Virus record (IMG/VR): IMGVR_UViG_3300045988_177049
Coordinates: 32,001-96,000 of that record
Length of the DNA stretch: 64,000 bases
From: a virus
Reading direction: 5' to 3' (one strand)
Shown: positions 41,124 to 57,991 of the stretch, in pieces
Numbering within the stretch: position 1 is the stretch's first letter
How the letters are laid out: every line of letters begins with the position of its first letter
The notes under the pieces: generated by a model
Seen by the model: only the letters and a program-made list of their open reading frames with translations
What the model was told of the DNA's origin: nothing
Databases searched by the model: none
Program-made: the position numbers and the translations under genes

Positions 41124-44100
41124 TCACTCGTTCTCTCGGCGCTCATGGATACGAGCCATAGCTCGATCAAAAGCACCGTTACCGAGATCTTCCCACGATT
41201 CACAGCTGTTCAAGAACTTATAGAACGCGTCGTGAACCTGCCACGAGCCAAGCTCAGCAGCATTCATGATCGACTCATCGTCACCATACACACCTTGGGT
41301 GGCATCAGACGATGCATCCTGGATCGCGCGCAGCTCAGAGCTTGACAAGCCCTGGCTGATGTACACCCGACCTTCAAGCGAGCACAGTGACCCGTTCGCG
41401 TCCACTCTAAAGAACCGGGCGTCTCCTGCAAGTTCACGCTTGGTCTCACGGTACGCAGCGATGATCTCATCATCAAGACTATGGATCACACTTCCGTTGT
41501 CACCGATAAAATCAGCACGGCTGATCTGACCTTCGGCATACCGCTTCTTCTTCCGATCATCCATAATCTTCTGCTGCACGGCCATTTCTTGCTGAACGTC
41601 CTCATTGATCACGTCATCTTGACTAAAGACATCATAACCCGCTCCCACGAAAGCACGATACGCGTCCTCACTCATCATGTCGTATTCTTCGGACTCATCA
41701 CTTTGACCTTGGCGTTCTGCCTCAATGGATGCAATGAGATCCATGACCTCAGCCGAGTACACGTCTGGGTCCAAAATCGAGATGCCGTAATCATCCAGGT
41801 TATAAGCATCTTGGTACAGATTCATTGCCTCAGCAGCGTTTGCAGCCTGTTCAATACGCTTGTCCAGCATCTTGACAAAGTCAGGCTGGTTCAAGCGCAC
41901 ATCGAACTCAAGTGCAGACGAAAGGGTTGGAATCGTCTGGAGCGAATACGTGTGTCCTGGATGCTGAATCGTGTCTTTGAACAAACGCCACGACATCGGC
42001 AGGATCTCTGCATTGCGGTTCCAGATCGGTGAGATACCAGCGGAGAAGATGATTGAATTACGCTCCGGCAAAAATGCCAAGTCATTGTACCCAATCACAG
42101 ACTCTTCCTTCGCACTGATCGTGTACGAGACCTTGCCCTCAACATTCAAACCTTCGATGAGACGCTCGGTATCCTGAGTCACCGTCTTCGAGTCTCGCAC
42201 CGCGCGGTGGCGCGTACCTGACATCTTCGCCAATGTCTCAATCATCGTATCGTCCGTCGATTTCAGAAACACAATATTGGCAACGTTTCCTTGGATGATC
42301 TTATCTACCGAGTCGCCATAGACGTCTCTAGCCTGCTGCAACGTTTGAAGAATCAACGTAAATTGCTGCTCCTGGCCCAAACCAATCGACAACATGGTTT
42401 CGAACCCGGCGATACCGTGGCCCTCAGACTGCAAGTTACCCAACTCGTCAAGCATGAAGCGCGTCTTGTACAACGGCTTCTGGCTCGACTTGGTCATGTA
42501 AGACTTATCAAAGTTCAAGTCCACCAATTGCTTCACGAGGATCAGCACGAGTTTCGCGTACTTCATCAAGTGCGGTGGCGTCACCAGGAACACAGCCTTG
42601 GGTTGTTCCGAGTACCGCACCGACGACAAGATAATGGCAGGCACGCTCTCTCGCACCGTCTGAGGCTTCCCAGCCTTATCGAGAAGACGAGTCGTGGGGT
42701 AGTTCAGATGACCTGGAACAAGTTTTCCATCCGGCCCCTTCACCATCTCCACGAGAACACCATTACGGATGATCTTGCTTCCCGTCACAGGGTCTTTGAC
42801 GAACTTACGACCATTCAGGGACAACTGGTACCCCTTCGTGAACTGAAAATAGAACGTCTTCAAGAGCACGCCGGTATGCGGATTAAACAAGCGCAGTCGC
42901 AAGTATGCGACATCGTGAGGGAACTTCCCATCGAAGTAGTAACGCGCCCAACCTTCTCGCACAACTGTGTCTTCGTGCTCAAAGTCTTTCCCGAGGTTGT
43001 GTGTCAACTCGGGATCATCAAAGGCATCCCACTTCGCCTGAGCACCAATGAGACCGTCTCGCTTAGTGAAGTTTTGTGCGAAACGGACACCGAAACGACG
43101 AGGGAACGACAACCCGCCCAAGTCAGTGTTCTGGGAGGGCGTACCAGAAGTCAGTGTCGAGATCGTCGGATCAGTAAAGAAGCTCATTGCGGTGATCGCA
43201 ATACCGTAGACAGACGCAAGCATCTTCTCAGCTCCCGCCATTGCACGAAGCGCATTGTTGGCGTTGGCAATGAGCGTGCGCATCGTCGACTGAGGTAGAG
43301 CCTCGGTCGCGTTAAAGAACAAGGTGAGCAGGTCCAGCTCAGGCTTGTCTTCCCACAAGAACTCAATACGCTCGGCTTGTGCCTGGTCGTGATTGATCGC
43401 TTCCTGACGTTCGTCCTCGTCCTGAATCTGGTCGTAATACCCACCCTTGAGACGCTCGTTCATCTGAGTCATGGGCGACTTGCGCTTCTTCGAGGTGAGC
43501 TGCACAAAAAGCTGGTAGCAGTTATAGAGCGTGACTTTACCCCACATGGCATCGAGCTTTTGTTCCAAAACCTTTTGATCCATGCCATGTCGCATCGCAT
43601 ACTGACGCAACTGGTGCTCTTCTTCCAGGTAGTAGTCGATCAAGCCGTATGCTGCACGCTTGAACGCGTTGTTTGCAGCGTTCGGCCACACCGGGTCTTC
43701 TGCACCATCGACTGGGAAGAACACGTCTGCGATGTTTTCAACGTAGAGAGCACACTTGGTCTGGTCACCTTCGCGTGCTGCCTCAGCAGCCATCCCAAGC
43801 GGATTGTAAATGTCCGTTTTCATGGCATTGATGAGGTTAAACTGCACAACCTGGAACCCGCGCATGGTGGCACGGACGTAATTTTTCACCAAAAGTTCGC
43901 CCTTGGGGTCATTGATGACCATGTTGTCCGGGCGCTTTTGGCGCATCCAGATATCGAGCATCGGTTCAATGTAGGTCTGACCTTTACCAGCACGAGTCAT
44001 AGCAAGGATCATGGTGTTGGCAGGGGCTGTATCAACGTAATACACACCAGCCGGGCGCTGAGGCTCATACGTAGGCAGCTCCCACTCCCCATTCACCAGA

Positions 44101-45164
44101 TCGGCGAGCGTGGCAAAACCTTTGAGCTTATCTCGGCTCGCGTTCCCGGGGTTGTAAGGAACAGTGCTGGGGTCGAGACGCCGACGCAGTTTATCGTTGT
44201 CAGGCAGACCCGAGGCGTCCCACAAAGCCGTTCCAAAGGCTTCATCGAACATCGGAACCATGTCAGTGATCGGGGTTCCGTGTTCATCGGTGAGAACCTC
44301 GCCCTTGAACAAAGTCACGTCGTCATCTTCATCAAGAATGTCTGTCTCAGCACGCTTGGCAAACGCCACCGGCTTAATACCCTTATTCGCCACCATCGAG
44401 TGTGAAATGAGCGTTGTCGCACTGACCCCTGTGTGTGCTCCAACATCGGGAACAACGTCGAAACGCTCGCGCACCTCTTCGGGCAAGGCCACGTGCTGAT
44501 CGTTCTTGTACTGGTTAATATCCGTGGTGTCACGCATGAGGTTCTGAGCCTTAAGATTGCGCATCAAGACCAGACGCAGCGCCCCCCATGCTGCTCCACC
44601 AGCGAAGGCGGAGACGAAAAACTTGATCCAACCGAGTGAGAAGATCCACCCCAGAGCACTCCCAGGTTGATCAGCCATCTGAGCATCCCGCTCGGCCTTT
44701 TCTGCTGCCACAGCGTCCTTATGCCACTGTGGTTCAGGAACGTCCTTGGCTGACTCGTAACACGTCTCATCAGATGGGTCAGGCGACCCATCCTCTAGAG
44801 CCGGAGAATAACACACCTCGCTGATCACAGAACGGTGCAAAGCTTTGGTAAGATCCCTGTTCTCAACCGAATAGCTCGGTACAGACGAGTGCCACAGCGA
44901 GTCTTTCACCGCTGCAATGCCCATCGAACCAAACGAAATGATCACCCAGACGGAAATGAAAACAAGTATGCCGACCGCTGCTGAGGCGATCTCACGAGAG
45001 CGAGGAGAGAGCTTTGCTTCAATCTCACTACGCTCAAGCTGCTGATCCCCGTGAACATCCTGGTACGCCAAGGAGTCCAGCTCGTCTTGCTGACCGAGCT
45101 GTGCCCACGCTTGGCTCCCCTTTTCACGAGGGGCCTGCCCTCTGGCTTTTCGACGCCAACCCAT
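41124..45164 (-). CDS. type IV secretion coupling protein (VirD4/TraG-like T4CP) with long C-terminal extension
   Basis: Two N-terminal TM helices. ILAMTRAGKGQTYIEPML (T4CP Walker A, cf. APTRSGKG) and VINDPKGEL (the conserved T4CP DPKGE motif). 1346 aa. Confidence 0.7.
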   Translation of the reverse strand: MGWRRKARGQAPREKGSQAWAQLGQQDELDSLAYQDVHGDQQLERSEIEAKLSPRSREIASAAVGILVFISVWVIISFGSMGIAAVKDSLWHSSVPSYSVENRDLTKALHRSVISEVCYSPALEDGSPDPSDETCYESAKDVPEPQWHKDAVAAEKAERDAQMADQPGSALGWIFSLGWIKFFVSAFAGGAAWGALRLVLMRNLKAQNLMRDTTDINQYKNDQHVALPEEVRERFDVVPDVGAHTGVSATTLISHSMVANKGIKPVAFAKRAETDILDEDDDVTLFKGEVLTDEHGTPITDMVPMFDEAFGTALWDASGLPDNDKLRRRLDPSTVPYNPGNASRDKLKGFATLADLVNGEWELPTYEPQRPAGVYYVDTAPANTMILAMTRAGKGQTYIEPMLDIWMRQKRPDNMVINDPKGELLVKNYVRATMRGFQVVQFNLINAMKTDIYNPLGMAAEAAREGDQTKCALYVENIADVFFPVDGAEDPVWPNAANNAFKRAAYGLIDYYLEEEHQLRQYAMRHGMDQKVLEQKLDAMWGKVTLYNCYQLFVQLTSKKRKSPMTQMNERLKGGYYDQIQDEDERQEAINHDQAQAERIEFLWEDKPELDLLTLFFNATEALPQSTMRTLIANANNALRAMAGAEKMLASVYGIAITAMSFFTDPTISTLTSGTPSQNTDLGGLSFPRRFGVRFAQNFTKRDGLIGAQAKWDAFDDPELTHNLGKDFEHEDTVVREGWARYYFDGKFPHDVAYLRLRLFNPHTGVLLKTFYFQFTKGYQLSLNGRKFVKDPVTGSKIIRNGVLVEMVKGPDGKLVPGHLNYPTTRLLDKAGKPQTVRESVPAIILSSVRYSEQPKAVFLVTPPHLMKYAKLVLILVKQLVDLNFDKSYMTKSSQKPLYKTRFMLDELGNLQSEGHGIAGFETMLSIGLGQEQQFTLILQTLQQARDVYGDSVDKIIQGNVANIVFLKSTDDTMIETLAKMSGTRHRAVRDSKTVTQDTERLIEGLNVEGKVSYTISAKEESVIGYNDLAFLPERNSIIFSAGISPIWNRNAEILPMSWRLFKDTIQHPGHTYSLQTIPTLSSALEFDVRLNQPDFVKMLDKRIEQAANAAEAMNLYQDAYNLDDYGISILDPDVYSAEVMDLIASIEAERQGQSDESEEYDMMSEDAYRAFVGAGYDVFSQDDVINEDVQQEMAVQQKIMDDRKKKRYAEGQISRADFIGDNGSVIHSLDDEIIAAYRETKRELAGDARFFRVDANGSLCSLEGRVYISQGLSSSELRAIQDASSDATQGVYGDDESIMNAAELGSWQVHDAFYKFLNSCESWEDLGNGAFDRAMARIHERRENE

Positions 45165-45311
45165 ATCGTCACCTTCCTTTTAATTCGTTTGGTACACCAA
45201 TACAATCATATCAGATATACACAGGTTGTATCAAAGACAAAAAGAGGGGATACGGCCCAGGTTTCCCAGACCGTATCCCCTTCTTACGCTACCAAGTGGC
45301 GCACGGGTATC

Positions 45312-47600
45312 TTAGACACCCAATGTACCACCACCAGCAGCATTATTCATCACCCATGACATCATCGAAGCAGCGTGTGCGCTCGAACCTGCCCCGCCAT
45401 GAACGAGCATTCCAATGATCACGCCCAGTGCGAGGAACGCCAGAGCGACCAAAACCGCCAGCGCGATGTAGAGTCGGTTGGCTCGCTTGGCGACAAGGTT
45501 CTCGCGATCCATCTGATCCATGAGCAGCTGCTTGTCGGTTTGCAACGACTCGACCTGGCTCTGGAACTGCCGTGCGATCTCATCACGAACAACGCCAACG
45601 CGCTCGGCTTCTTCCTTCACGCGCTCGTTCGCACGCTGAACCTCTGCGCGAGCCTGAGCGAGCTGTGCATCATTTTCCTGGCGCATACGCTCCAAGACCT
45701 TGTTCGCTTCGTCCTGAGCCGCTAGAACGCGCTTGTGGGCTTCATCGCGTTCACGTGCGATCTGCTCGTGCAGCTCCTGTTCACGAGCTGCAAATTCAGC
45801 GCTCTTTTCCTCAACGATGTTCTGACGCGAGAGCTGTTCCTGGAGAGCCTGGGTACGAGCAATGTCTTCCTTACGATTCTCATCAAGGAAGTCATTCATC
45901 TCGACGCGGAACTTCTCGATCAGTTCAGCTTCACGCTGCACCTGCTCAGCGCGCTTTTCAATGAGGTGATCCATCACCTTAGTGATGGCCGCATCGAACG
46001 CACCCTGTGCCGAGGTCTTGCGAGCACGCAAAATCTCATAGCGGCGTGCCTCGTAGTCGGATTCGATGTCCAAGCGAATCGATACTTCCAAGTCGTCCAT
46101 CTGGCGAGTTAGAGCGGGCTTGTGACGCTCGTCGTAACGCACGCGCTCTTCCCCGATTCGAGCCTGGATAAAGGCTTCACGTTCCTGCTGGTACCGATCG
46201 GCGAGTACAGCCTTCTCCTTCTCAGAAATCTCAATCAAATCGGCAAGAGCCTTTGTCTCATTACCATTGACCTCAGCCATGGTCTTGGCCCACGTGTTCT
46301 CGGCGTCTTCGTCAATGCTCATCTGAGACGAGATCTCATCTCCCGTACGTGAGACGAGCGAGAAGAACAGGTTACGCAGTTCCTCGATATCACGACGACG
46401 CTGGTCAGCAAGAACAGTGTTCGCCTGCTGAGAGAGCATCTTGATCTGACCATCAAGCCAGTTGGTGCTGTCCAGATGATCCAGAGAGAACTGAGCCGGG
46501 GTATCAACCTCGTAGCCCAGCAGGGTCTCGAAAGGCGTCATATCAACGGCGAAATCCAGGCTGTCATCAAGGAAGCGACGAGCAACGGCTGTGCGAACAG
46601 CGTCTTTATTAAAGACACGCTCGTCCACCGGAGCAACCTCAGGTGCGACCTCTACCTCTTCGGTCTGAGTCGGTACATGCAGAGCAGGGGCGGGAGCCTC
46701 TTCGATGTCATCGAAGGGGTTCTCATCCTCATCGTCCTCGTCATACAGACCCTCATCCGAAGGCAGCTCATCAACCATCGATTCATCCGGGATGTCATCG
46801 GGGTCGAAGTGAGGCAGGTTTTCAACAGCCTCAACAGACTCACTCTGAGCAGCGGTAGGCGGAAGGGTCGGAGCAGCCGGTGCTGCTTCCTCATGCACCT
46901 CTTCGGGTGCCACTTCTTCTACAGCTTCCTCTTCAACCCCGTCTCCACCGAGACGCTTCCACAGCGTCGGGATGAGCGATGCCAAGGTGATAGTACCCGC
47001 TGCAATCTCCTGAGCCTGAGCCAGGGTGACAGTATCGATGTCTCCATCAGGAACCTCAATGAGACCCGTTGCTTCATCGAAATGAACAGGAACGGTTTCA
47101 AGAGTTCCATCGGCGGCAGGGGTCACCGACGTGAGCAAGAACTTCGCACGGTCGAACAGGGTGTACTCCCCCATGCCATCAGGTCCAAGGGAAGCAGGGG
47201 TGGGGATCACGCCCAAAATATTGTGACGAAGCATGTCTTCGGTCGCACACACCTGGATCTTATCGTCAGCGATCCGCTGAAGGATCGACCCCTTGTCTTC
47301 ATTGCCCTTGGACGAGACCTTACCGAGGCCCCCGATACCGCCGTCTTCGATCGAGGCGTCAACAGGGAGCGCAAGAATCACGCCAATACCGTTTGGCAGA
47401 AGCCATTCGGTGTTCTGGCGAATAATATCAAGGGCAGCGCCGGGTTCAGTCTCATCGATGACCAAAGTCAGCGAGTCCTTCGCAGCACGTGCATCAACGG
47501 CTGGTGCCTTCGTTTCGGTCTGAGCAGGAGCGGCTGCCTGAGCTTCTTCAATTGCGCCGCCGCCATCGGCAGCAGCCTTGTCTTTCTTGCCAAACAACAT
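45312..47600 (-). CDS. membrane-anchored coiled-coil protein with acidic N-terminal region
   Basis: Long heptad-rich E/R/K/Q region (aa ~400-700) then a C-terminal TM helix LYIALAVLVALAFLALGVIIGML. Sits between the T4CP and the Clp-like ATPase. Confidence 0.5.
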   Translation of the reverse strand: MLFGKKDKAAADGGGAIEEAQAAAPAQTETKAPAVDARAAKDSLTLVIDETEPGAALDIIRQNTEWLLPNGIGVILALPVDASIEDGGIGGLGKVSSKGNEDKGSILQRIADDKIQVCATEDMLRHNILGVIPTPASLGPDGMGEYTLFDRAKFLLTSVTPAADGTLETVPVHFDEATGLIEVPDGDIDTVTLAQAQEIAAGTITLASLIPTLWKRLGGDGVEEEAVEEVAPEEVHEEAAPAAPTLPPTAAQSESVEAVENLPHFDPDDIPDESMVDELPSDEGLYDEDDEDENPFDDIEEAPAPALHVPTQTEEVEVAPEVAPVDERVFNKDAVRTAVARRFLDDSLDFAVDMTPFETLLGYEVDTPAQFSLDHLDSTNWLDGQIKMLSQQANTVLADQRRRDIEELRNLFFSLVSRTGDEISSQMSIDEDAENTWAKTMAEVNGNETKALADLIEISEKEKAVLADRYQQEREAFIQARIGEERVRYDERHKPALTRQMDDLEVSIRLDIESDYEARRYEILRARKTSAQGAFDAAITKVMDHLIEKRAEQVQREAELIEKFRVEMNDFLDENRKEDIARTQALQEQLSRQNIVEEKSAEFAAREQELHEQIARERDEAHKRVLAAQDEANKVLERMRQENDAQLAQARAEVQRANERVKEEAERVGVVRDEIARQFQSQVESLQTDKQLLMDQMDRENLVAKRANRLYIALAVLVALAFLALGVIIGMLVHGGAGSSAHAASMMSWVMNNAAGGGTLGV

Positions 47601-47752
47601 TGAAATCCTTTCGTTTGATCAAATGGGTGATGGAGCCGGTACCACCACCCAACCACGGTAATGAATGGTACCGGCATCGCGAGGTTTACACTCGTGTATC
47701 AGCATATCACACTTTTATGCACCGATGTTGATACACGAGCATATTCGCACTA

Positions 47753-50700
47753 TTACGCGAGAACAGCATCATAAGGTTGGACCACAACACGCGCATCCGA
47801 CTTCAAAATCGACACGTCTTCACTACGCAATGTGCCTTCAATTCTGACGGCAATATTACGTTCATGTGGATGTTCATTGATAAACGCGGCGATTTCCGTT
47901 GTCACAAATCGCTGCATCCGTCGCACCATGTCACGAGCACCACCAGAGTCCGAGTCGCTCCGCGCCTCATCTTCCACGAGAAACTCCAACACACGCCCAT
48001 CGACGGTGACATGGATACCGTGCTTACGCTTGACGTCTGTGATCATTTCAGCGAGCTTCTTCGTCATGATCTTGCGCAGCGTGGCACGAGACAGAGGCTG
48101 GAACGGGACGATGGCATCGATACGACCCAAGAGTTCCGGTGGGAACTTTCCACCGTCTTCGCTCTTGATCGAGGTCTCGATGATCTTCTCGTAATCTCGC
48201 ATCGTCTCTTCGCTCCCGTGGTCATCGGCGTTGTATTCACCAATGGTGCGATAGATCTCAGAGCCAGCGTTCGTGGTCAACACGATGTACGTGTTCAGGA
48301 ACGAGACCTGGCGACCATCTTTATCGGACAGACGACCGTCATCGAGCACCTGAAGCAGCAGGCGCACAACGAGCGGTGACGCCTTCTCGATCTCATCGAA
48401 AAGCAGCACGCAGTGGCTCGTTGCCCACACGTGACGAGCGAGGTCTTCACGGAAGAGATCAACGCTGTCATCCCTGCCCCATTCCGACATGTCGAAACGC
48501 ACAAGGTGGCGCTGATCGTCGCCAAACAGGATCTTTGCAAGCTGCTTCGTGACCTCAGTGTTGTGCGTAACGATGAAGTCACCTGCTTGGTACAGGTGCT
48601 CGTCATCGGCAACGTAAATACACGAAGAGGACTCTCGATACGGAAGTTTCTCGATCTTGGTGATACCGACCATATCGAACTTCTTGACACGTTGACGACC
48701 CTTGGTTGCGACCTTTGCTTCCTCAGCAATGGCACGCTTACGCTCCAACCAAAAGAAACGAGTCTTATCGTCATTGCTGGACTTGACGTAAATCGTATAC
48801 TCCGTTGACACACGACCATCATCATCGGTGCGCATATACGTATTCATAGTGTTAGACACACCGAGCGAAAACAGCAGTTCGCGTACATCCTCAGCCAGGC
48901 CCTGAGAAGATGTCGAATAACTGACATCATAACGATCCTTAACGATGCTACCGTCAGTATCGAAAAGCCCGCGCACTAGCTCCCAACGTTGTCCAACGGA
49001 TGCCGCCATATACTGTTGTGGGATACGACGCTCAGTAGAATATACACCGATTAACTCAGGAACCTTAGCAAAGATATCTTTCGTCTGAACGAGACTATCC
49101 CTATGCCCAAATTTCTCACCAGTTTTAAATAGCCAGCAATAATGTGCGTTATCTTCCTTAAACTCAAAACCGATGGTCTCACTGATACGACGTACAACAT
49201 CAATATCATCAGAAGATAGCCTCAGTGGCTTTCTCGTCAAACACCCATTTCCGATAAACACCCCAACCACATAAGGATCTACCGGCAAATGAGCATCAGG
49301 CCACTGCACAGCCTCATTCATCGGGATGAAAAACTTCATGCGTTTCGCCCCACTCTTTGGATGAATGTTCAATACACCCGACTCCAACATATCCATCGTT
49401 GTCATCACACGAGGCTGAACATCGAGGCCCCCACGCTTACGCTCCCGCATAGACCGAGTGTACACACTCCATAAATGCGGCCCACCAACATCAAGGTGTC
49501 GACCATCCCACGTGTGAACACGATAAATGTCCTGCTTCCCTTGAGGGAACACAGCGAGAACCTCTTCCGGTGAGCCATCGCGTTTAAACACACGATCACC
49601 AGGAACGAGATCACCGTGACGTTTCCACGCCACAGAACCATCCTCAGAAAAGACTGGTACACGAGTAGAGTCTGTACACAGCTTGCCCACGCCTGAGCTG
49701 CCCGTCAGCAACAGCGATGCCATAGGTTTACTCGGGTCATTCAACCCGGCCACACACAGCTGCAAACGCCGTGCAATCGACGTCGTGGCAAAGTCTTGGC
49801 TAAAGACGCGCTTGTCCAGCTCGGCTTTAATCGCCGTAGCATCGACGTTAATCTCGACTTCGACACCGAACTCGACTTTCAACACTGTTGCGAGCAGTTT
49901 CTTATCCATCGGCTCACCGAGGTACCTGTGGCGACCCACCATGGCATCGAGCACACGGATCGACTTACGCGGCTGTACGGAGGCAGGCACGTAGCGGTTC
50001 GTGTAGTCAAAGATCTGCTCGTAGAGCGACTCGCTGATCATGCCCTGATCGACGCCATACTTTTGCGCCATGGCCTTGAGAATCTCGATAGTCACCCTTC
50101 GATTCGTCTGAGGGATGTTGATACGCGCAAGGCGTTCAACCAAAGGCAGGTTCGAGGCAATATGAGCATCGAACTCGTCATAGGTCGTTGCCGCAATAAC
50201 CTTGATCCCACGCGATCCAGAAGCCGCGAGCAAAGGCTTGAGCGCTTCCACAGCAGCAGCGGAGAGCTGAACCACCTGGTGAAACTCGTCGATGAACAGC
50301 ACGACTTCCCGGCCCTCGGCCTTAGAAAAAGCCTCGGCTTCGTCGAACAGAGCCTTGAGGCGTGCAGCCATTTCCTCGGGGTTCGACAGGTCAGAGATCA
50401 TCTTCGCCATGTCAACTTCGAGGTAAATACGAGCCGGATCATCTTCCATGCACGACTGTACGAGCACAGTGTTGTGCGTGACGATGTGACCCCGACCCAC
50501 CTGGTACAGGTGAGTGTCCGAGTCCACCATGATGCACGTCATCTCTGTTTCACGGTTATTGTCAATAACCTCAGCGATCAAGCCACCGATTCGACCCAGA
50601 GAACACTCCAGCTCGTGCATGTCGATATCGACCTTCCAGATGAAAGGCGAGGACACATCTCGATACGACTCACTTTCTCGCAAGGCTCGTACCATCTCTT

Positions 50701-51526
50701 GACGATCATGAACGCTACTCGTCATGTACAGACGCGGGATGCGACGCTGTTCCTCATCCTTCACGATCAAACCTGTAAATGCTGGATGCGTCATCACCTG
50801 TGGGCCTTCGACGCGCTTACCTGTCCCCTCGTGGATAAAAATCGATCGGGAACTCTCGCGCTGTCGCTTCCATCCCATGTGCTCTTCGATCGCTGCAAAA
50901 ACCTCATCGGGAGCCTCATTCGGCATACTGACGTACCCACGCTCGTCAATGCGTACACCCCAGCCGAGAAACGCTCCGCACACATAAGGATCAACCGGGA
51001 GCAAACGGCTCTGTCGCACCAGTGCTCCAGATGCAGGCAGCTCCCATACCAAAGACCTGTCCTGGGGATCCACCAAGCCCTGGTCCATAATCTCTCGCAG
51101 CGACAATGTCTGCCACTCGTGAGTTCCACAGCGACGCACAGTCCACAGGTGCTCATCGTTGCAGCGTACTCGATCCCCTCGATTCGTGACCATCTCATAT
51201 TCGCGCCGCATCCCCTGTGGGAACACGCCTGTGACAGTGACAGGGTCTCCGTGTTCATCAAAGACGCGATCCCCCACCTTGAGCATCCCAATACGCACGT
51301 ACCCACGTTCGTCTGCAACCGGAATCAACTCATCGTTTGGATGAGCCTTGCCGGTGCCTGGCGGGGCAAGCAGAATCGCGTTACACATCTCGGGGCGAGC
51401 CAGAGCACTCATCAATGAGACCTTCTCCTTTTCACGGCCCACAACTTCACGCGCGGGTTTGCCCAGACGAGACGCAAAATCTCGCAGCATGGGATAAGCC
51501 TCATTCAGACGATCATTGTCGAACAC
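47753..51526 (-). CDS. ClpA/ClpB-like double-AAA+ ATPase precursor interrupted by two inteins
   Basis: Extein sequence reconstitutes D1 LLAPPGTGK|T..., VVLFIDEFHQV, VIAATT and D2 LLTGSSGVGK(L)|TEVTKQLAKILFG, VLLFDEIEKA, LTTNAG. It is paralogous to the 14964..16805 product. Confidence 0.7.
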   Translation of the reverse strand: MFDNDRLNEAYPMLRDFASRLGKPAREVVGREKEKVSLMSALARPEMCNAILLAPPGTGKAHPNDELIPVADERGYVRIGMLKVGDRVFDEHGDPVTVTGVFPQGMRREYEMVTNRGDRVRCNDEHLWTVRRCGTHEWQTLSLREIMDQGLVDPQDRSLVWELPASGALVRQSRLLPVDPYVCGAFLGWGVRIDERGYVSMPNEAPDEVFAAIEEHMGWKRQRESSRSIFIHEGTGKRVEGPQVMTHPAFTGLIVKDEEQRRIPRLYMTSSVHDRQEMVRALRESESYRDVSSPFIWKVDIDMHELECSLGRIGGLIAEVIDNNRETEMTCIMVDSDTHLYQVGRGHIVTHNTVLVQSCMEDDPARIYLEVDMAKMISDLSNPEEMAARLKALFDEAEAFSKAEGREVVLFIDEFHQVVQLSAAAVEALKPLLAASGSRGIKVIAATTYDEFDAHIASNLPLVERLARINIPQTNRRVTIEILKAMAQKYGVDQGMISESLYEQIFDYTNRYVPASVQPRKSIRVLDAMVGRHRYLGEPMDKKLLATVLKVEFGVEVEINVDATAIKAELDKRVFSQDFATTSIARRLQLCVAGLNDPSKPMASLLLTGSSGVGKLCTDSTRVPVFSEDGSVAWKRHGDLVPGDRVFKRDGSPEEVLAVFPQGKQDIYRVHTWDGRHLDVGGPHLWSVYTRSMRERKRGGLDVQPRVMTTMDMLESGVLNIHPKSGAKRMKFFIPMNEAVQWPDAHLPVDPYVVGVFIGNGCLTRKPLRLSSDDIDVVRRISETIGFEFKEDNAHYCWLFKTGEKFGHRDSLVQTKDIFAKVPELIGVYSTERRIPQQYMAASVGQRWELVRGLFDTDGSIVKDRYDVSYSTSSQGLAEDVRELLFSLGVSNTMNTYMRTDDDGRVSTEYTIYVKSSNDDKTRFFWLERKRAIAEEAKVATKGRQRVKKFDMVGITKIEKLPYRESSSCIYVADDEHLYQAGDFIVTHNTEVTKQLAKILFGDDQRHLVRFDMSEWGRDDSVDLFREDLARHVWATSHCVLLFDEIEKASPLVVRLLLQVLDDGRLSDKDGRQVSFLNTYIVLTTNAGSEIYRTIGEYNADDHGSEETMRDYEKIIETSIKSEDGGKFPPELLGRIDAIVPFQPLSRATLRKIMTKKLAEMITDVKRKHGIHVTVDGRVLEFLVEDEARSDSDSGGARDMVRRMQRFVTTEIAAFINEHPHERNIAVRIEGTLRSEDVSILKSDARVVVQPYDAVLA
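48560..49678 (-). mobile_element. intein 2 (~373 aa, Cys1 ... HN / +1 Thr) in the D2 P-loop of the Clp-like ATPase
   Basis: Inserted after GVGK(L). N-block CTDSTRVPVF...GDRVF. LAGLIDADG motifs PYVVGVFIGNGCL and VRGLFDTDGS. C-terminal DFIVTHN|TEV. The exact -1 residue (L) is uncertain. Confidence 0.6.
50471..51346 (-). mobile_element. intein 1 (292 aa, Ala1 ... HN / +1 Thr) in the D1 P-loop of the Clp-like ATPase
   Basis: Inserted between GTGK and T of the Walker A. Hint N-block ...VRIGMLKVGDRVF..., C-terminal GHIVTHN|T. An internal LAGLIDADG-like segment (PYVCGAFLGWG). Confidence 0.6.
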
Positions 51527-51653
51527 ATTAACACTCCGTTCAATCGATTAACTTGGTATACCAGCATTCTAGCACAATCACTCGACAATAAAAAATCACC
51601 CTCGCCAGATTTCTCCAGCGAGGGTGAAACGGAGGTGTAAACCTACCAAACGA

Positions 51654-52205
51654 TCAGAACTCCGGTTCGTCGTTCTCGATCTCAGCAACCTCTTCAACCT
51701 GCGCCTCGGCGCTAACCTCGGCTTCTGCGTCCTTCTGAGCAGCCTTGCGAGCTTCATTAGCTTCCTTAGCTGCCTTCGAAGCTGCACGCAGCTCATCGAA
51801 GATCTTATCGTCGATCGCCAACTCCGAAGGCTCAAGAGTCTTCGTGTTGATGACAAGACCAGTCTGCTTACCAGATGCAGGCATCACGTCTGCCTTCACC
51901 GCGTAAACGCGAGGTCCCGGATGACCGTCACGCTCAGGCATCTGAACGAAGTTATCGCCAGCCGCAGCAACAATAGCATCTCGCTGAGACACACTGTAAC
52001 CGGCCTGGTGATCATACACCGTTCGACCATCCAATTCACGCTTCTTCGACACCAGGTGAGGAACTTGCTGGGGTGCAACACCCTCAACAGGACGCACCTG
52101 TGCATCCAGGAAGAAACGATCGCCAGCCTTTGAGTGTGCGTTGGGGTATTCGACAACCACCAGCTCGACACCACTCATTGAACCCTTACCACGTAGAATA
52201 GCCAT
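51654..52205 (-). CDS. hypothetical protein with acidic C-terminal SSB-tail-like ...ENDEPEF
   Basis: 183 aa. The last ~50 aa are an Ala/Glu/Lys-rich helix ending EIENDEPEF, like the actinobacterial SSB C-terminus DDEPPF. Sits immediately downstream of the relaxase. Confidence 0.45.
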   Translation of the reverse strand: MAILRGKGSMSGVELVVVEYPNAHSKAGDRFFLDAQVRPVEGVAPQQVPHLVSKKRELDGRTVYDHQAGYSVSQRDAIVAAAGDNFVQMPERDGHPGPRVYAVKADVMPASGKQTGLVINTKTLEPSELAIDDKIFDELRAASKAAKEANEARKAAQKDAEAEVSAEAQVEEVAEIENDEPEF

Positions 52206-52340
52206 TGCGCCATCCTCCTTCCATATCCCGCTCCGCAGAGCGTCAGTCGAGGGTTAATCAGCCCTCTCATATACACGGGTCCCTCCCGTGCAACGCTCTT
52301 TCATCATAATACGAGAAAACACTGAGTGTCAAGTCAAACA

Positions 52341-54665
52341 TCAACCAAGTTCAATATCGTCGGATGCATCCATGATGTCATTCTCAGGCGTGTCCAGAAC
52401 AGCCTCAATCTGAGGCACCAAGTCTGCCGTCTCGCGCCATGTGCTTATCCGAACGATGCCAGCCAGACCCTCGTCAAAACTGACTGTTGCACTCCGGCGC
52501 ACCCCCTTTTTCATCGGAACCACATCGCTGAGCGCGCTTGTGAGAACCAGATCGCCACTCTTGTGGCTCATCTGCTTCTCCAGATCATCAGCCACCTTAT
52601 TCATCCGGCGCACATCACCCAGGGGCAACACGGCGTCAACGATGGTGCTCTGGCCTGATTGCTCCAAATAGGTTCGAGCCTCATCAACCAGACGTTGCCG
52701 CCTTCGTGCCCACTGAACGAAGCCCTGGGCCGTGTGGCGTCCCAGGGCCATATCCACCACCGTGTCCGACCTAACGTCGTGAAGATCCATACCCTTGGTT
52801 TCAGACAATGTCCAGCGTTCCCCTTGCACCACAGTGAGGGCGTTCTCGCCACCTGCTGTCTGATCCTTTTGATCCGAGTCCTCATCGCCCACAGCCTTGA
52901 TGACAAGACCTTGACCCGACAGGGTGGACACAAGATCGTTCATACGGGTTTTGAGCGTCTCACGCGCCTTCTCTAGGCGGCGGCGCAAAGTCTGACGCCC
53001 CGCTGAGCCACCGGCCACCAGCAAACGTCCACCGCTCACGCCATGAGAGACCACCCCTAAGCGCTCGGCTTCATTCGCATCCTTCATCTTCGGGATGGAA
53101 CGGTCCCCCAGCAACCCCTCTAGGCCAAAAACACCCGTGCGTGCCTGATCGACAGCATACAACGCCTCTTTCCACGTCTCATCGCTACTCTCACCATCAA
53201 CGCCTGTAGCCAGCGGCCCCAGCAGCGAGCGATATTTACTCACGCACCGGGCATGATACTCTTCCTCTTCGAGATAGAGCCTATGCATCGGCTCAGAGGT
53301 TGACGAGACGACCCCTGCTTGGAAACCAGACTCCCATTCTGAGGCACGCTGACGCCACATCTCACGTTGAGCGTTATGTTCCCGCATCCTTGTTCCATAC
53401 GAGCGTAGTCGCAATGAGAAGCCCACAAGATCATCCTCGGCGCTCACGCCCCCAGCTCGGGTCTTGATCTGCTGAGCGTGAGTAGCCATCAGGGTCTCCA
53501 CGTCTTGGCTCATCACGTCCAGAGTCGGCGTACGTACATGTGTCATCTCTGGCGGCAACGAGGCAAGAACTTGGTACAAACCGTTAACACCTCGCTCCAT
53601 AATGGTCTGATACCCACGCTGAACCAATGCCTTGCGCGCCTGCTCACTCAAACCTTCTCGCTGTGCCCTACGGCCAGCGTAGGTCTCGACAGCGAGCATG
53701 GCAGAAGCCATCGGTGAGCCTTCTTGTTCAAGCAGCTCACTCACCAGCTCTGTGGCAACGCTATTGGCACGTCGCATCTCGCTCCGGTTTGATCCGTAAC
53801 GCCACAAAGTCTTGTCAGCAGGCAGGCACGCGAGCAGCAGCTGTGGAAGCGACTCTTCGAGCACCTTCTTATGCGCCCATCGCTTAACAAACGCTGCGAC
53901 ATTAAGTCGTTCATACCCCACAGCGCTCGACATATGAGCCACGTGCTGGTTCTCGTCTAACCACGAGTCCACCCCTCGGCGGAGCACAGAGATGTCGGTG
54001 CTCGTCAGTTTACCTTTCTGCTGGACGCCTTTCCCGGTGCGCACTCTCCGACCGCGCCCGGCATCAACCATTGCGAGATGGCAGTGAACATGCAGGGTAT
54101 CCACCTGGATCACGCCCACGTAGCGCAGGTCATCGAAACGATGCCCCATACGCTCCAGTCCATGCATAATCGCCATGCGCAGGCGCATCTGGTCGATATG
54201 GCCTCGGTAATCGCCTTTGTTCTGTGCCACGAAACCCTTGGGAACCACACCCATCTCTTGCAGATACTCAGGGCTAAAAGACAACACAGTTTTCATGACT
54301 GTGTGACCTTCATCGAACAGACGTTGAATGTCAGCGCTGGCTCGGCGTACACCTTCATCAGAGAGCGAGGGTTGGCCGTAGCCAAAGGCAACGCCGCCCA
54401 GCCCAGAGACATGGAGCACGCTCTCTTTAACCTCGTAGCGCGAATGAGCCTTCTCCGTTGCGCTCTCACGGGCCATGTAACGAAGAATAAAGTCTTCCGT
54501 ATCGCGCTTGCGGATCGGCGTGACAGGTTCGGTTGCCCCTTTGCGAGCCATATAGCGCATGACGTAGGTACCGGGGGTACCACCACGTGATCCACCTTTG
54601 CCAGACCCTGGGGTGGGCACGCTGAACTCGTTGACGACAACGATGCTGCTCTTAAGGCTCACCAT
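52341..54665 (-). CDS. conjugative relaxase (MOBP-like)
   Basis: N-terminal GTYVMRYMARKGA (catalytic Tyr region, with a second copy FILRYMARESA) and His-cluster motif GVIQVDTLHVHCHLAMV (cf. RP4 TraI HGDTDNLHIHILIN). A long C-terminal extension follows. Confidence 0.55.
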   Translation of the reverse strand: MVSLKSSIVVVNEFSVPTPGSGKGGSRGGTPGTYVMRYMARKGATEPVTPIRKRDTEDFILRYMARESATEKAHSRYEVKESVLHVSGLGGVAFGYGQPSLSDEGVRRASADIQRLFDEGHTVMKTVLSFSPEYLQEMGVVPKGFVAQNKGDYRGHIDQMRLRMAIMHGLERMGHRFDDLRYVGVIQVDTLHVHCHLAMVDAGRGRRVRTGKGVQQKGKLTSTDISVLRRGVDSWLDENQHVAHMSSAVGYERLNVAAFVKRWAHKKVLEESLPQLLLACLPADKTLWRYGSNRSEMRRANSVATELVSELLEQEGSPMASAMLAVETYAGRRAQREGLSEQARKALVQRGYQTIMERGVNGLYQVLASLPPEMTHVRTPTLDVMSQDVETLMATHAQQIKTRAGGVSAEDDLVGFSLRLRSYGTRMREHNAQREMWRQRASEWESGFQAGVVSSTSEPMHRLYLEEEEYHARCVSKYRSLLGPLATGVDGESSDETWKEALYAVDQARTGVFGLEGLLGDRSIPKMKDANEAERLGVVSHGVSGGRLLVAGGSAGRQTLRRRLEKARETLKTRMNDLVSTLSGQGLVIKAVGDEDSDQKDQTAGGENALTVVQGERWTLSETKGMDLHDVRSDTVVDMALGRHTAQGFVQWARRRQRLVDEARTYLEQSGQSTIVDAVLPLGDVRRMNKVADDLEKQMSHKSGDLVLTSALSDVVPMKKGVRRSATVSFDEGLAGIVRISTWRETADLVPQIEAVLDTPENDIMDASDDIELG

Positions 54666-54740
54666 TCAACCTTTCTGTAACGTCTGAATACAAGCAACAG
54701 GGGCGGCGCAATCCCACCGCCCCTGCCGCATTGCGACATC

Positions 54741-55844
54741 TTAGAACTCGGGTTCCTCGTCCTCGATGTCAAGGTCAAGAGCGTTAATCGTCTTGTCTCC
54801 CGCGCTCGTGTCCTTCTCGTCGCTCTCATCCGCGACAGGCATCTTTTCACGCAGACGTGCTTCGACCTCTTCACGGATCGAGTCATCGTTCAAAGCCTCG
54901 GTGACAGCAGGGCTGTTCTCGGCAATCTGAGAGGCGACAAAGTCGCCGAGCACAGACTTGAACGTCGAGTCCAGGGTGCTCTCCTTGGCAGACTCCACGC
55001 TCGGTTTGTCCTCGCGCGTCTCTTCTGCTTCGACCTCGGCCTCATCCTGGGCGGCTGCCTTGTTTTGAGCGTTGCGCATCAGCGCATCGAACAGAGGCGA
55101 TTCCATGACAGGCAGAGAAGTCGCAGAAGCGCCGCTCAGAGCCTGAGAAATCGACGCACCTTCTGCCTCGCTGACTCGACCTTCTGAGCCGTCCTCGTCA
55201 TACTCAGACAGATCCATACCGGCGAACATGTCGTTCACCTGAGAGGTTCGCTCCATGCTCCGATCCGCAGACAGGCTGTTTTCACTCTCACGAGAGCGAA
55301 TCTCACTGAGGTAATCCGGGAAGTAGTCGGACAGATCAAGGCCGGAGTTCTCGGAGTCAATGACAAGTCCGTCTCGGTCCACAACGTCAAGGAACACCAG
55401 TGGTGCTTCCGTTTCGTTTCGAGGTGCAATTGCAATGCCCTTGTAGTGAGCCGGAAGCTGCCACACTTGGTTGAGCAGATCGGCAGGGGGTTCGAAACCT
55501 TCGTTGAAGAAACCCTTTTGAACAAGGGCGACAAGCTGCTCATCGGAGAATTCATAGAATGCATCGACCGTTGAGTCACCGCCATCCATGTTCCGATCAA
55601 AAGCCACCTCGGTCACGCCGTAGGCGATCTCGGGTGAGTCATAGGGGACCAGTCCAACAAGGCGACCACGAACATGGAGAACGGGTCGGTAGTTAGAGGC
55701 TGGTCCATGGTTGGTGAAATACAAGGTGTCCACAAGAACCTTGATGTCGGCTTCGCCTTCAACCTCACGCGTTTCAACGTCTCGCATCGACAGGGCGCGT
55801 TGTACCCAGCGATTCGAGCGACGCATTCCGGTAACGGTACTCAT
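54741..55844 (-). CDS. hypothetical highly acidic protein with C-terminal ...DIEDEEPEF
   Basis: 367 aa. The C-terminal half is Asp/Glu/Ser-rich and ends EEPEF (SSB-Ct-like). First gene upstream of the relaxase. Confidence 0.45.
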   Translation of the reverse strand: MSTVTGMRRSNRWVQRALSMRDVETREVEGEADIKVLVDTLYFTNHGPASNYRPVLHVRGRLVGLVPYDSPEIAYGVTEVAFDRNMDGGDSTVDAFYEFSDEQLVALVQKGFFNEGFEPPADLLNQVWQLPAHYKGIAIAPRNETEAPLVFLDVVDRDGLVIDSENSGLDLSDYFPDYLSEIRSRESENSLSADRSMERTSQVNDMFAGMDLSEYDEDGSEGRVSEAEGASISQALSGASATSLPVMESPLFDALMRNAQNKAAAQDEAEVEAEETREDKPSVESAKESTLDSTFKSVLGDFVASQIAENSPAVTEALNDDSIREEVEARLREKMPVADESDEKDTSAGDKTINALDLDIEDEEPEF

Positions 55845-55883
55845 ATATTCTCTCTTTCCTTTAGTAGGGGTAGAACCATCGGC

Positions 55884-56378
55884 TCAGCGCCGACGCGACT
55901 TCTTCTTCTTTCGGTCTGGTTCAGGGGTTTCGACACGCTTTGCACGGCCCATTGGTTCAGAGGCGTGGTGCACACCTTCTGTCCACTCGCCCATGCCCCC
56001 TGCTCGATCAACCCATAGTCTCATCGAGTCAAAACCTCGGTTCATGACGCGCCACATCCATGCGCACAGCGCGATCACACCAGCGGAGATCACCAAGGTT
56101 GTGAGCAGCATCGGAGCAACCCAGTACGTGATGAACGATTCACTGCTCGGCGCGTTTGCACTCGTCACACCCAATGCATTTTGAATGAGTGATCCCATGT
56201 TTGGAACAACTTTCAGCGCTCCCCACATCGTGATCCACAGGCTGATAAACAGCCATAGGACAAAGCCGATGACGCGGGCAACAACGTAGAGGCCCATACG
56301 GGCACTTCGCTTGATTGCACCCTTTTCATCGTCAGTCATGGGAGTGCGGGAGGTCTTAACCAAAGAAGTCAGGTTCAT
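55884..56378 (-). CDS. small integral membrane protein
   Basis: Three predicted TM helices and a basic C-terminus (KKKKSRRR). Confidence 0.45.
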   Translation of the reverse strand: MNLTSLVKTSRTPMTDDEKGAIKRSARMGLYVVARVIGFVLWLFISLWITMWGALKVVPNMGSLIQNALGVTSANAPSSESFITYWVAPMLLTTLVISAGVIALCAWMWRVMNRGFDSMRLWVDRAGGMGEWTEGVHHASEPMGRAKRVETPEPDRKKKKSRRR

Positions 56379-56435
56379 TCGAGATTTCCTTTCAGATTAT
56401 TTCAATAAAACAATGACATGTGGGACTGCACATGC

Positions 56436-57161
56436 TTAGTACGTCCGATCGTGACCAGGAGAACCGGCCCAACCGATGAGATCAGTAACGTTTCCATCAC
56501 TATCCACGGTGTAACTCATCGTAGAGTACGAGGTGCTGGTTGCCTTACCGTCAACGCTTCGTGTTTTGATACCGACCACGGCAAAGTAGGAGTACTTCGT
56601 GCCGTTAATGTTCGTCACAGCGCTCGTGAACGAATCGAGAGTCGAGTTCGCGCCTTCATAAGCAAAGTACGTCTTTCCAGACGAGTCTGTGCGCCACGCA
56701 CCTGCATCTTCACCCGGCATAAACACCTTGAGGAACTGAGAGTTCTCATCGAGATGCCAACGATCGATGAGCGCCTTTCGTGCATCAATGTACTGTTGCC
56801 CGCTTGACCACGTAAGCGCCTGCTTCATAATGGCTTCAACAGTCTCGTCATCCTTGGCCTTACGAGCCGGGGACATGCCAGTGGTCTCGGTCGAGACATT
56901 CTCTTGCGCGGTCGCACTTGATGCCTGGGTCGAGCCAAGCTGAGAGCGCAACTGCTGGACGTAGGCTTCCGTGCGTGCGTTCTCGGCGCTCACGGTGTTT
57001 CCGTGAACAGCCGCAACACCGATACCACCGCACAGAATCGCACCACCTGCAATGAGTGCTCCGAAACGTACAACCCACGAGGGCTTATTCTCTTGTGTCA
57101 TCTCAACCAACTCCGTTCGCGTGTGCCGTGTCATCACTAATGAGCAAGCGTGCTCCAGCAC
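56436..57161 (-). CDS. hypothetical secreted/membrane-anchored protein
   Basis: N-terminal TM/signal-anchor (FGALIAGGAILCGGIGVAAV), then a Ser/Thr-rich extracytoplasmic domain. Confidence 0.45.
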   Translation of the reverse strand: MLEHACSLVMTRHTRTELVEMTQENKPSWVVRFGALIAGGAILCGGIGVAAVHGNTVSAENARTEAYVQQLRSQLGSTQASSATAQENVSTETTGMSPARKAKDDETVEAIMKQALTWSSGQQYIDARKALIDRWHLDENSQFLKVFMPGEDAGAWRTDSSGKTYFAYEGANSTLDSFTSAVTNINGTKYSYFAVVGIKTRSVDGKATSTSYSTMSYTVDSDGNVTDLIGWAGSPGHDRTY

Positions 57162-57879
57162 TCGTCACGCCAGTATGCAGCTTGGAGAACGTTCCAGACC
57201 CAGCATCATACGTGGCTGTCGTCCATGCGAGCAACGTACCGTCGCTCCCCTTGCACAACCATGCGATCGGCAGAGCGGACGTGTCTGTCACATCGTAGGT
57301 GACAACCGATTCCCACTTGTACTGATCGGCGGGCATCGGATTTGCCCCGCCAGACCCGTCCTTAACCAAAGGCGAGAACCACCTGCCAGCAGCCTTGCTC
57401 GGAACCAACTGAGCCAACGCCTCATACAGTGCCTTGGACTTTTGTGCATCCTGCTGTGCCTGTGCAGCAGCAGTGCTCGGTTGCCAACCCCTGTATTCGT
57501 TTTGGAGATCGGCAACCTTCTGGCTCTTTTCTTGCAGGGCGCTCACAGCCTTCTTCGCCACGTTCGCATCAGGAACAGCCTGCTCGGTGTGCTGTGCGCT
57601 AGAGATCTGAGCGTTCAGATCGTTAATCTCAGCCGTGCGGTCCACAGGCTTGGTCTGCATCCCAAACGCTGCAATACCAATACCAAGAGCTGCAAGACCC
57701 ATGCTTGCACCCACCTTGAGGCCAGTGCGAGAGCGAGTGTTCTCACCGGAACCCTGCTCCTTTTCAGCGCGACGACGCTCCCATTCTTCGGCAACGTCGA
57801 TGCGAGTTGTGCGCTTCGGCTTTTCAGTCGGGGTGCGCGACCATTCAATCAAGTCATCAAGTTTCGACACGGCTATCAC
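57103..57879 (-). CDS. hypothetical bitopic membrane protein
   Basis: TM helix GASMGLAALGIGIAAFGM after a charged N-terminus. Overlaps the downstream gene start (operon coupling). Confidence 0.45.
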   Translation of the reverse strand: MIAVSKLDDLIEWSRTPTEKPKRTTRIDVAEEWERRRAEKEQGSGENTRSRTGLKVGASMGLAALGIGIAAFGMQTKPVDRTAEINDLNAQISSAQHTEQAVPDANVAKKAVSALQEKSQKVADLQNEYRGWQPSTAAAQAQQDAQKSKALYEALAQLVPSKAAGRWFSPLVKDGSGGANPMPADQYKWESVVTYDVTDTSALPIAWLCKGSDGTLLAWTTATYDAGSGTFSKLHTGVTSAGARLLISDDTAHANGVG

Positions 57880-57991
57880 TTCCTTTCGTTTGACGCGATT
57901 TCACTCGTGTATCAATATAATTATTGTAGCACAAAACCCCGCACTAGATGCAATATCTAGCACGGGGCCTGTGATCAATCCATGCAACAAC

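Follow-up and report, generated by a model that had tools for sequence, protein, structure and literature searches.

Class 3 inteins are defined by a non-nucleophilic first residue, a triplet of Trp B:12, Cys F:4, and Thr G:5 (WCT), and a Ser or Thr at position +1 (Tori et al. 2010, PMC2807308). In the class 3 prototype, block F carries Cys320, His328, and Phe330 and block G carries Thr339, His340, and Asn341 (PMC2807308). These inteins are concentrated in the P-loops of helicase-like ATPases of phage origin (PMC2807308). The junction between the P-loop Lys and Thr, written here as K/T with the slash at the point of insertion, is a "classic" intein site (PMC5050341). A stretch of 64,000 nucleotides (nt), positions 32,001 to 96,000 of the IMG/VR virus record IMGVR_UViG_3300045988_177049, was analyzed and is called the window. 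An intact open reading frame (ORF) on its minus strand, 47753..51526 (-), encodes a ClpA/B/C-like double-AAA ATPase precursor of 1257 amino acids (aa) that belongs to a conjugation module. Its two P-loops are each split by an insert, and both inserts are very probably class 3 inteins that have invaded the GxGK/T motif.

Class 3 features of the two inserts

The ORF is uninterrupted over 3.8 kb. Pfam matches to AAA, AAA_2, ClpB_D2-small, and LAGLIDADG_3 were found in the precursor. The AAA match (aa 369-455) begins only at profile position 27 and the AAA_2 match (aa 989-1139) begins only at profile position 16, so the P-loop parts of both AAA modules are displaced. When aa 61-352 and aa 616-989 were removed in silico, a 591-aa protein was obtained with GTGK/TVLVQ in the first AAA module (D1) and GVGK/TEVTKQLAKILFG in the second (D2). 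This spliced protein is colinear with ClpA (residues 16-547 against profile positions 170-716 of 734, NCBIfam TIGR02639) and can also be aligned to Staphylococcus aureus ClpC in the Protein Data Bank (PDB). It possesses two AAA+ modules with Walker A and Walker B, the D2 Arg finger, and sensor 2. An initial annotation of this DNA had proposed two inteins at the two P-loops, with canonical Walker A sequences restored by excision, and both the colinear alignment and the class 3 signature described below bear this out.

Insert 1 comprises aa 61-352 (292 aa; 50471..51346 (-)), as placed by in-silico splicing and an alignment of inteins, and begins with Ala61. Insert 2 comprises aa 616-989 (374 aa; 48560..49681 (-)). 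Both cut Walker A between the Lys and the Thr. Many relatives with 97-99% identity and lengths of 883-897 aa were returned by a search with the spliced protein; in these, insert 1 is present and the D2 P-loop is unbroken. In alleles with an extein protein that is about 99% identical, the uninterrupted D2 P-loop reads GSSGVGK[S/T]E[V/I]TKQLA, and intein-free proteins (P0004, P0001, and P0036) are available for comparison. At the DNA level, the window differs from the intein-2-free allele L005 by an exact 1122-nt indel immediately after GGCAAG, and the empty D2 site reads ...GGCGTGGGCAAG/ACTGAGGTCACG.... The intein-free alleles and the exact indel thus indicate that insert 2 starts at Leu616 and not at Cys617. 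Since neither junction residue is repeated, no other placement is possible. The initial annotation had placed insert 2 at about 617-989 with Cys as its first residue; its C-terminal end, HN/T, was correct, but its start was not. An in-register alignment shows that the two inserts are homologues (30% identity over 240 aa, E 1e-20). Together with the identical K/T position and the shared VTHN/T end, this argues that the inserts are not due to chance.

The residues expected of class 3 inteins were found in both inserts. In intein 1 these are Ala61, His126-Leu-Trp128 (block B), Cys331 (block F:4), and Thr350-His351-Asn352 followed by Thr353 (+1). In intein 2 they are Leu616, His684-Leu-Trp686 (block B), Cys969 (block F:4), and Thr987-His988-Asn989 followed by Thr990 (+1). 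Block F reads Cys331-Ile-Met-Val-Asp-Ser-Asp-Thr-His-Leu-Tyr in intein 1 and Cys969-Ile-Tyr-Val-Ala-Asp-Asp-Glu-His-Leu-Tyr in intein 2. The C(+8)H(+10)[F/Y] spacing in both is that of Cys320/His328/Phe330 in the MP-Be DnaB prototype. Each insert therefore has a non-nucleophilic residue 1, the WCT triplet, a His-Asn end, and Thr+1. An HTW sequence at aa 671-673 was considered as block B of intein 2 and was dropped, as the alignment puts block B at H684/W686.

A profile of eight related inteins matches the HINT domains of the solved inteins gp41-1 (6riz, 6qaz), Mycobacterium smegmatis DnaBi1 (6bs8), and Mycobacterium chimaera DnaB1 (6rix, 6riy) at E 1e-16 to 3e-10. The middle part of the same profile matches the PI-SceI endonuclease domain in the PDB (residues ~208-385). 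Intein 1 had been described in the initial annotation as starting with Ala, an unusual class. That class can now be named as class 3, in which residue 1 is free to vary. The Leu before the supposed first Cys of intein 2 had been left as a puzzle. It is settled by taking Leu616, not Cys617, as residue 1 and the block F Cys as the nucleophile. The two oddities share this one explanation because the class 3 nucleophile is the block F Cys and residue 1 is variable. Class 2 splicing, in which the +1 residue attacks directly, was set aside, since the WCT triplet that is present here is absent from class 2 inteins as known from KlbA (PMC2807308).

Distribution and history of the inteins

The ATPase family was sampled through the 150 best relatives of the spliced protein (31-96% identity), taken from an exhaustive HMMER search of 1.84 billion representatives. 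No intein is present in 63 of these, 18 have an intein in D1 only, 26 in D2 only, and 31 in both; the rest are fragments. All four occupancy states thus exist, which argues that the inserts are mobile and are not structural domains. The initial annotation had named inserts found in every homologue as the outcome that would speak against inteins; with 63 of the 150 carrying neither insert and single-intein forms known at both sites, the intein reading survives. All 107 family inserts lie exactly between Lys and Thr, and each is followed by Thr+1 (107/107); THN is the end of every insert except three. At least 13 first residues (A, L, G, S, M, Q, D, F, P, N, R, T, or C) are used, and the first residue is non-nucleophilic in 96 of the 107. 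Such a natural series may help both in engineering and in learning which residues are tolerated at the N-terminal junction of class 3 inteins. In a family alignment of 109 inteins, the block B His, the block F Cys, and the terminal His-Asn are each present in 109/109, the Trp in 102/109, and the Thr G:5 in 106/109. The family can already be regarded as an exceptionally dense natural library of class 3 inteins (107 in 150 representatives).

A nearest-neighbor analysis found the closest relative at the same site for 105 of 109 inteins, and the D1 and D2 inteins within one protein are only 29% identical on average. D1 and D2 thus hold two site-specific lineages, and the two inteins of the window are distant homologues. 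The histories of intein and extein disagree, because intein 2 similarity is uncoupled from extein similarity. The intein most similar to intein 2 of the window (58% identity) is in a protein with 48% extein identity, and in P0121, with an extein that is 94% identical, intein 2 is only 49% identical to that of the window.

Related inserts were found by a genome scan in other P-loop ATPases of the Bacillota. They are located in the Walker A of a DnaB helicase in Ezakiella (SGVGK/ALPN...VTHN/T) and of a RecD-like helicase in Waltera (GTGK/AQPI...VTHN/T). Within the ATPase family, Streptomyces sp. NBC_01454 possesses a plasmid (NZ_CP109461.1) that encodes a 1431-aa precursor (WP_329142712.1; L009 5522..9817) with class 3 inteins in both P-loops. 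Its D1 intein (LLPLGT...PTHN/T) begins with Leu and has an intact LGDG/DTDG endonuclease, and its D2 intein (FCIDST...VTHN/T) begins with Phe. In RefSeq this protein is labeled only as "AAA family ATPase" and the inteins are unmarked. Conjugative elements, like phages, repeatedly unite intein-plus and intein-minus alleles in one cell, and this plausibly accounts for the intein hot spot.

The two inteins of the window differ in their state. Intein 2 has a GC content of 0.484, compared with 0.551 for the extein and 0.554 for intein 1, and it is missing from almost all close alleles. It contains a LAGLIDADG homing-endonuclease domain (48788..49276 (-); Pfam LAGLIDADG_3 at aa 850-913, E 3e-12). 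The low GC, the absence from nearly all close alleles, and the retained LAGLIDADG domain make intein 2 look like a recent, sporadic arrival by homing. Its LAGLIDADG motif 2, LVRGLFDTDGS (aa 850-860), has Asp at the catalytic position, and motif 1, PYVVGVFIGNG (aa 751-761), has Asn. In the motif 1 catalytic column, D is found in 26 and N in 20 of the family inteins. Judging by this Asn, the endonuclease may be a nickase, weakened, or dead, and the idea that intein 2 is currently homing is weakened accordingly.

Intein 1 is old and fixed in the close clade, its endonuclease is decayed, its GC content matches that of the extein, and purifying selection acts on it. Among the closest 120 homologues, all those inspected carry it, in several length variants (77 distinct variants; lengths 883-924 aa). 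Its LAGLIDADG motifs are degenerate (LGWG, with Trp, at motif 1 and LRESES at motif 2). Relative to intein 2, a deletion of about 60 residues in the second half-domain has removed about half of the endonuclease domain, and Pfam gave no endonuclease match for intein 1. The initial annotation was right to report LAGLIDADG-like segments inside both inserts, in that intein 2 has a Pfam LAGLIDADG_3 domain and intein 1 a degenerate, truncated one. The ratio of nonsynonymous to synonymous divergence (dN/dS) is 0.02-0.16 for the HINT N-terminal part of intein 1, 0.06-0.20 for the HINT C-terminal part, 0.08-0.23 for the endonuclease remnant, and 0.02-0.14 for the extein, with dS saturated in the more distant comparisons. 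Purifying selection on the splicing residues of intein 1 is understandable because a failure to splice would kill the ATPase. An old fixed intein together with a younger sporadic one is the pattern expected from the homing cycle.

The 36 nt located 5' of the intein 2 site (49682..49717 (-), coding for LLLTGSSGVGK) are unusually divergent. Between the window and L005, 16 of the 36 nt differ (14 in a second comparison), against a gene-wide divergence of 8.1% (binomial P about 5e-9 for an upstream excess of 16/36). Almost all of these differences are synonymous, and in the second comparison all three other alleles differ from the window to a similar degree (12-14 of the same 36 nt). This can possibly be a co-conversion tract, or it can reflect hypervariability or escape of the target site from the endonuclease (immunity).

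With the class 3 prototypes as a model (PMC2807308, PMC5222942), a splicing pathway can be proposed. Cys331 and Cys969 would attack the Lys60-Ala61 and Lys615-Leu616 peptide bonds. The N-exteins would then move to the side chains of Thr353 and Thr990, each of which is both Thr+1 and the Walker A threonine itself. Cyclization of the terminal Asn352 and Asn989 would follow, and an O-to-N acyl shift would leave intact GTGKT and GVGKT P-loops. Only the doubly spliced protein would be expected to bind and hydrolyze ATP at both sites. The Walker A Thr would thus act first as a splicing nucleophile and afterwards as a Mg-ATP ligand, and the same dual role has been described for the Ser of DnaBi1 (PMC6195587).

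Several points weigh against the reading of both inserts as class 3 inteins. Splicing itself is something that we infer from the sequence alone. Pfam Hint-type models remained below threshold (Hom_end_hint has E 0.003, under its gathering score), and isolated intein 1 had no meaningful Pfam match, only a chance-level one to HicA. An AlphaFold2 model of intein 1 plus five residues of either flank, built from a 6-row alignment, has low confidence (mean predicted local distance difference test score 52.7, predicted template modeling score 0.40). Motif 1 of intein 2 has Asn instead of Asp/Glu at the catalytic position, and the saturation of dS mentioned above applies to the selection estimates. 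Lastly, both tandem inteins need to splice for full activity; if intein 1 is slow or inactive, D1 would be a degenerate site.

Three other explanations were weighed, and the one that survives best, although it is unlikely, is that the inteins are conditional. Splicing would then be a post-translational switch, as the initial annotation had suggested it might be. If oxidation of the catalytic Cys in block F held splicing back, for instance, the ATPase would be active only under permissive conditions. There is a precedent in DnaBi1, a class 3 P-loop mini-intein in M. smegmatis DnaB, which H2O2 inhibits reversibly via a disulfide to the block F Cys (PMC6195587). Both inteins here have the catalytic Cys and extra cysteines (CNDEHLW, RRCG, YVCG, and LECS in intein 1; Cys617, GNGCL, and HYCW in intein 2), and the purifying selection on intein 1 that includes the endonuclease remnant would suit a switch. 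However, 63 of the 150 family representatives do without any intein and therefore there is no general need for one. The extra cysteines may not be conserved, and the need to splice fully explains purifying selection on a P-loop intein. It is doubtful that the two lineages are more than parasites in this family and that sequential, condition-dependent splicing at the D1 and D2 P-loops (redox-gated, for example) licenses the ATPase in suitable donor cells or in newly entered recipient cells. If true, protein splicing would be a checkpoint of plasmid transfer.

There is little to suggest that one or both inserts no longer splice and are permanent domains or parts of a decaying pseudogene, which would leave an ATPase with one functional nucleotide site or none. 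The fixation of intein 1 in all close homologues and the loss of its endonuclease are as expected for a domesticated or dead element, and one class 3 intein pseudogene, Arsp-FB24 Arth_1007, is on record (PMC3196547). On the other hand, both inteins retain every splicing-catalytic residue, and these residues vary little or not at all across the 109 family inteins. The dN/dS values for the HINT parts and the extein are far below 1, and the unbroken ORF also argues against a pseudogene. The Walker A halves, Walker B, Arg finger, and sensor 2 of the extein are conserved, which would be unexpected if a 292-aa wedge had permanently inactivated D1.

Very improbable is a standard class 1 intein 2 that starts at Cys617 and leaves Leu616 in the mature protein (GVGKL-TEV): Cys is the commonest first residue of inteins and insert 2 has it at position 2, as do the Streptomyces plasmid allele (Phe-Cys) and 7 of the 109 family inteins, but the intein-free alleles show that Leu616 is part of the insert, the product would carry a broken Walker A (GKL for GKT), the second residue is not kept as Cys (Val in L001, where the intein is 88% identical; Thr in L002; mostly Leu, His, Ile, or Val across the family), and intein 2 has the full WCT signature.

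The host ATPase and the surrounding element

The extein of the precursor is in three parts. The N-extein (aa 1-60; 51347..51526 (-)) ends in the D1 Walker A half PPGTGK, which aligns to the GVGK of a second Clp-like protein encoded at 14964..16805. The middle extein (aa 353-615; 49682..50470 (-)) contains the remainder of D1, with Walker B (VVLFIDEFH) at aa 408, and the start of D2 through GSSGVGK. The C-extein (aa 990-1257 and the stop; 47753..48559 (-)) contains the remaining D2, with TEVTKQLAKILFG, Walker B (VLLFDEIEKA), the Arg finger (LLGRIDA), and sensor 2 (GGAR), followed by the D2-small domain.

The genes on both sides are consistent with conjugation. A MobL-family relaxase (52341..54665 (-); Pfam MobL, 2.4e-63) is located upstream in the same transcriptional direction. 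Downstream is a VirD4/TraG-like type IV coupling protein of 1346 aa (41124..45164 (-); Pfam T4SS-DNA_transf, TraG-D_C, and TrwB_AAD_bind; NCBIfam conju_CD1115). The ATPase does lie between the coupling protein and the relaxase, as the initial annotation had stated, but it is not adjacent to either. A 183-aa ORF (51654..52205 (-)) separates it from the relaxase, and a 762-aa ORF with no known domains (45312..47600 (-)) separates it from the coupling protein. The order MobL, small ORF, ATPase, ORF, and coupling protein was also found at four other loci (L005, L006, L009, and L010). These are the surroundings of the intein-2-free allele (L005) and of a 54%-identical intein-free homologue, the Gordonia plasmid pGKT2, which has no inteins, and the 639-kb Streptomyces plasmid (L009), where the ATPase has both inteins. 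More distant relatives of the ATPase (30-35% identity) are on plasmids of Staphylococcus, Lactococcus, Ligilactobacillus, and other genera. The 591-aa ATPase is a conserved part of a MobL-relaxase/coupling-protein conjugation module on plasmids of Actinomycetota and, more distantly, of Bacillota.

The initial annotation had suggested that a Clp-type unfoldase acts on substrates before secretion. This was not borne out by the pore loops. In an alignment to ClpC, the KYR pore-loop position of D1 reads SNP, and D2 has a gap of 9+3 residues across GAPPGYVG. The same D2 gap is present in all 26 family members that were aligned, and KYR is found in D1 of none of them. With neither of the canonical pore-loop tyrosines present across the family, the case for a threading unfoldase is weak. 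In NCBIfam, the spliced protein reaches 242 bits for ClpA, 238 for ClpB, and 225 for TssH, where the equivalog cut-offs are 993, 1232, and 885. The support is already there for a double-AAA ATPase without these pore loops as a conserved core gene of MobL-type conjugation modules. It may be regarded as an ATP-driven remodeling factor at the relaxosome/coupling-protein stage of transfer. For conjugation biology, this brings into view a conserved, uncharacterized ATPase that is always located between the MobL relaxase and the coupling protein.

The second double-AAA Clp-like ATPase, 14964..16805 (+), has 613 aa, and GYVG is retained in its D2 pore loop. Among NCBIfam models it scores best, although below the cut-off, against TssH/ClpV, the ATPase of type VI secretion. 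It is located among DNA-metabolism genes that include an SNF2 helicase (3581..5152), an MgsA-like gene (5245..6582), an AAA_5 gene (11815..13062), and a UvrD-like gene. It had been named as an intein-free paralog of the interrupted ATPase. It is intein-free and Clp-like, but it is only 23-26% identical, is encoded on the plus strand, and belongs to a different subfamily that keeps GYVG.

The UvrD-like helicase gene, within 17596..21818 (+), is split inside helicase motif III; the ORFs of this region are 17596..19539, 19501..19875, 19880..20581, and 20568..21818. Its first part ends in ...SLFIVG followed by KHCSR and a stop, and its second part restarts at ...DASQTLYEFRSANP.... In the gap, the group I intron model RF00028 is matched over its full length (47.1 bits, just below the gathering score of 50; E 1.7e-10), and after this match comes a 233-aa ORF for a free-standing LAGLIDADG endonuclease (Pfam LAGLIDADG_3, 5.7e-7). 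The element thus seems to have a protein-coding gene that is interrupted by a group I intron and its homing endonuclease. At 30668..36121 (-), a protein of 1817 aa is encoded with weak, short matches to Rpb2 domain 6 (aa 950-976) and to Rpb1 domain 2/archaeal subunit A' (aa 1258-1382). The element may thus encode a fused beta/beta'-like two-barrel RNA polymerase.

The identical 1257-aa protein is encoded in human oral metagenome assemblies of 109.5 kb. Two of these, L007 (109,488 bases) and L008 (109,581 bases), are independent, and their near-equal sizes suggest that the element is complete at about 109.5 kb. Contigs of 100-115 kb carry many close relatives. In a genome scan, the whole precursor had near relatives on two contigs that binning assigns to a metagenome-assembled genome of an uncultured Actinomyces; on the basis of this metagenomic binning, Actinomyces is the candidate host. 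A Megablast search of the locus against plasmid and phage collections gave no match, and metagenome assemblies are the only known source of the element. Every 2-kb bin of the window (1..64000) has a negative GC skew, although the genes switch from the plus strand (about 1-25 kb) to the minus strand (about 26-64 kb). Because its sign is constant across this switch, the skew tracks something besides the direction of transcription. It is perhaps linked to replication of the element.

Comparison with known systems

Literature searches on inteins in Clp-like, conjugative, or Actinomyces proteins gave no account of the present case. No description of class 3 inteins in a Clp-like conjugation ATPase family was found in the literature, of which coverage was incomplete, and this is no proof of novelty. 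For intein biology, the family is a class 3 host outside the helicases and terminases that had not been flagged before. For annotation, the size of such precursors and their broken P-loops could lead to them being mistaken for pseudogenes or novel domains.

The nearest counterparts of the two inteins are the class 3 inteins of DnaB, from mycobacteriophage Bethlehem, M. smegmatis (DnaBi1, 6bs8), and M. chimaera (DnaB1, 6rix). Like those described here, they are located between the Walker A Lys and Ser/Thr. They also share the non-nucleophilic residue 1, His B:10, Trp B:12, Cys F:4, the C..H.[F/Y] spacing, Thr-His-Asn, and a Thr or Ser at +1. Two inteins in one protein are also known from M. smegmatis DnaB (PMC6195587). 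Those two differ in class and in site, whereas the window has two class 3 homologues, one at the equivalent site in each of the duplicated domains. The DnaB inteins reside in a helicase, while the host here is a Clp/Hsp100-like double-AAA ATPase of a conjugation module. The first residue of the DnaB prototype is Pro, compared with Ala and Leu here. In contrast to a mini-intein such as DnaBi1, those of the window are full-length or endonuclease-remnant forms.

Plasmid-borne genes can also carry class 3 inteins. IcmO is a type IV secretion coupling-protein-like ATPase. The Bvi IcmO intein of Burkholderia vietnamiensis is class 3 and lies in a plasmid-borne gene, as is the case here (PMC5222942). 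It differs in being a mini-intein with Cys+1, in its site, which is not GxGK/T (N-extein ...SLGF, C-extein CITFA), and in the family of its host protein. PI-SceI (the VMA1 intein) and other LAGLIDADG inteins resemble those of the window, in which a predicted HINT splicing domain is likewise interrupted by a putative two-motif LAGLIDADG endonuclease domain. Unlike the class 3 inteins here, PI-SceI is class 1, with Cys1 and Cys+1. Intein 2 departs from the PI-SceI type by the Asn of its motif 1, and intein 1 by the missing half of the endonuclease domain.

The host protein is comparable to the Hsp100/Clp ATPases (ClpA, ClpB, ClpC, and ClpV/TssH). It has two AAA modules in ClpA order and a D2-small domain, with Walker A and B, the Arg finger, and sensor 2, and its best PDB and NCBIfam matches are ClpC, ClpB, ClpA, and TssH. 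Unlike these, it has no N-domain and no M-domain, and its scores are far below the equivalog cut-offs. A direct reading found no [LIV]-G-[FL] ClpP-docking tripeptide where S. aureus ClpC has AGF. The family also differs from Clp in being a fixed neighbor of the MobL relaxase and the coupling protein.

The K/T site, class 3 inteins in P-loop ATPases, proteins with two inteins, and a plasmid-borne class 3 intein in IcmO are all documented, and so the inserts of the window belong to a known kind of selfish element. What is noteworthy beyond this is that two homologous, site-specific lineages occupy duplicated domains, that the intein density of the family is unusually high, and that the range of first residues is wide.

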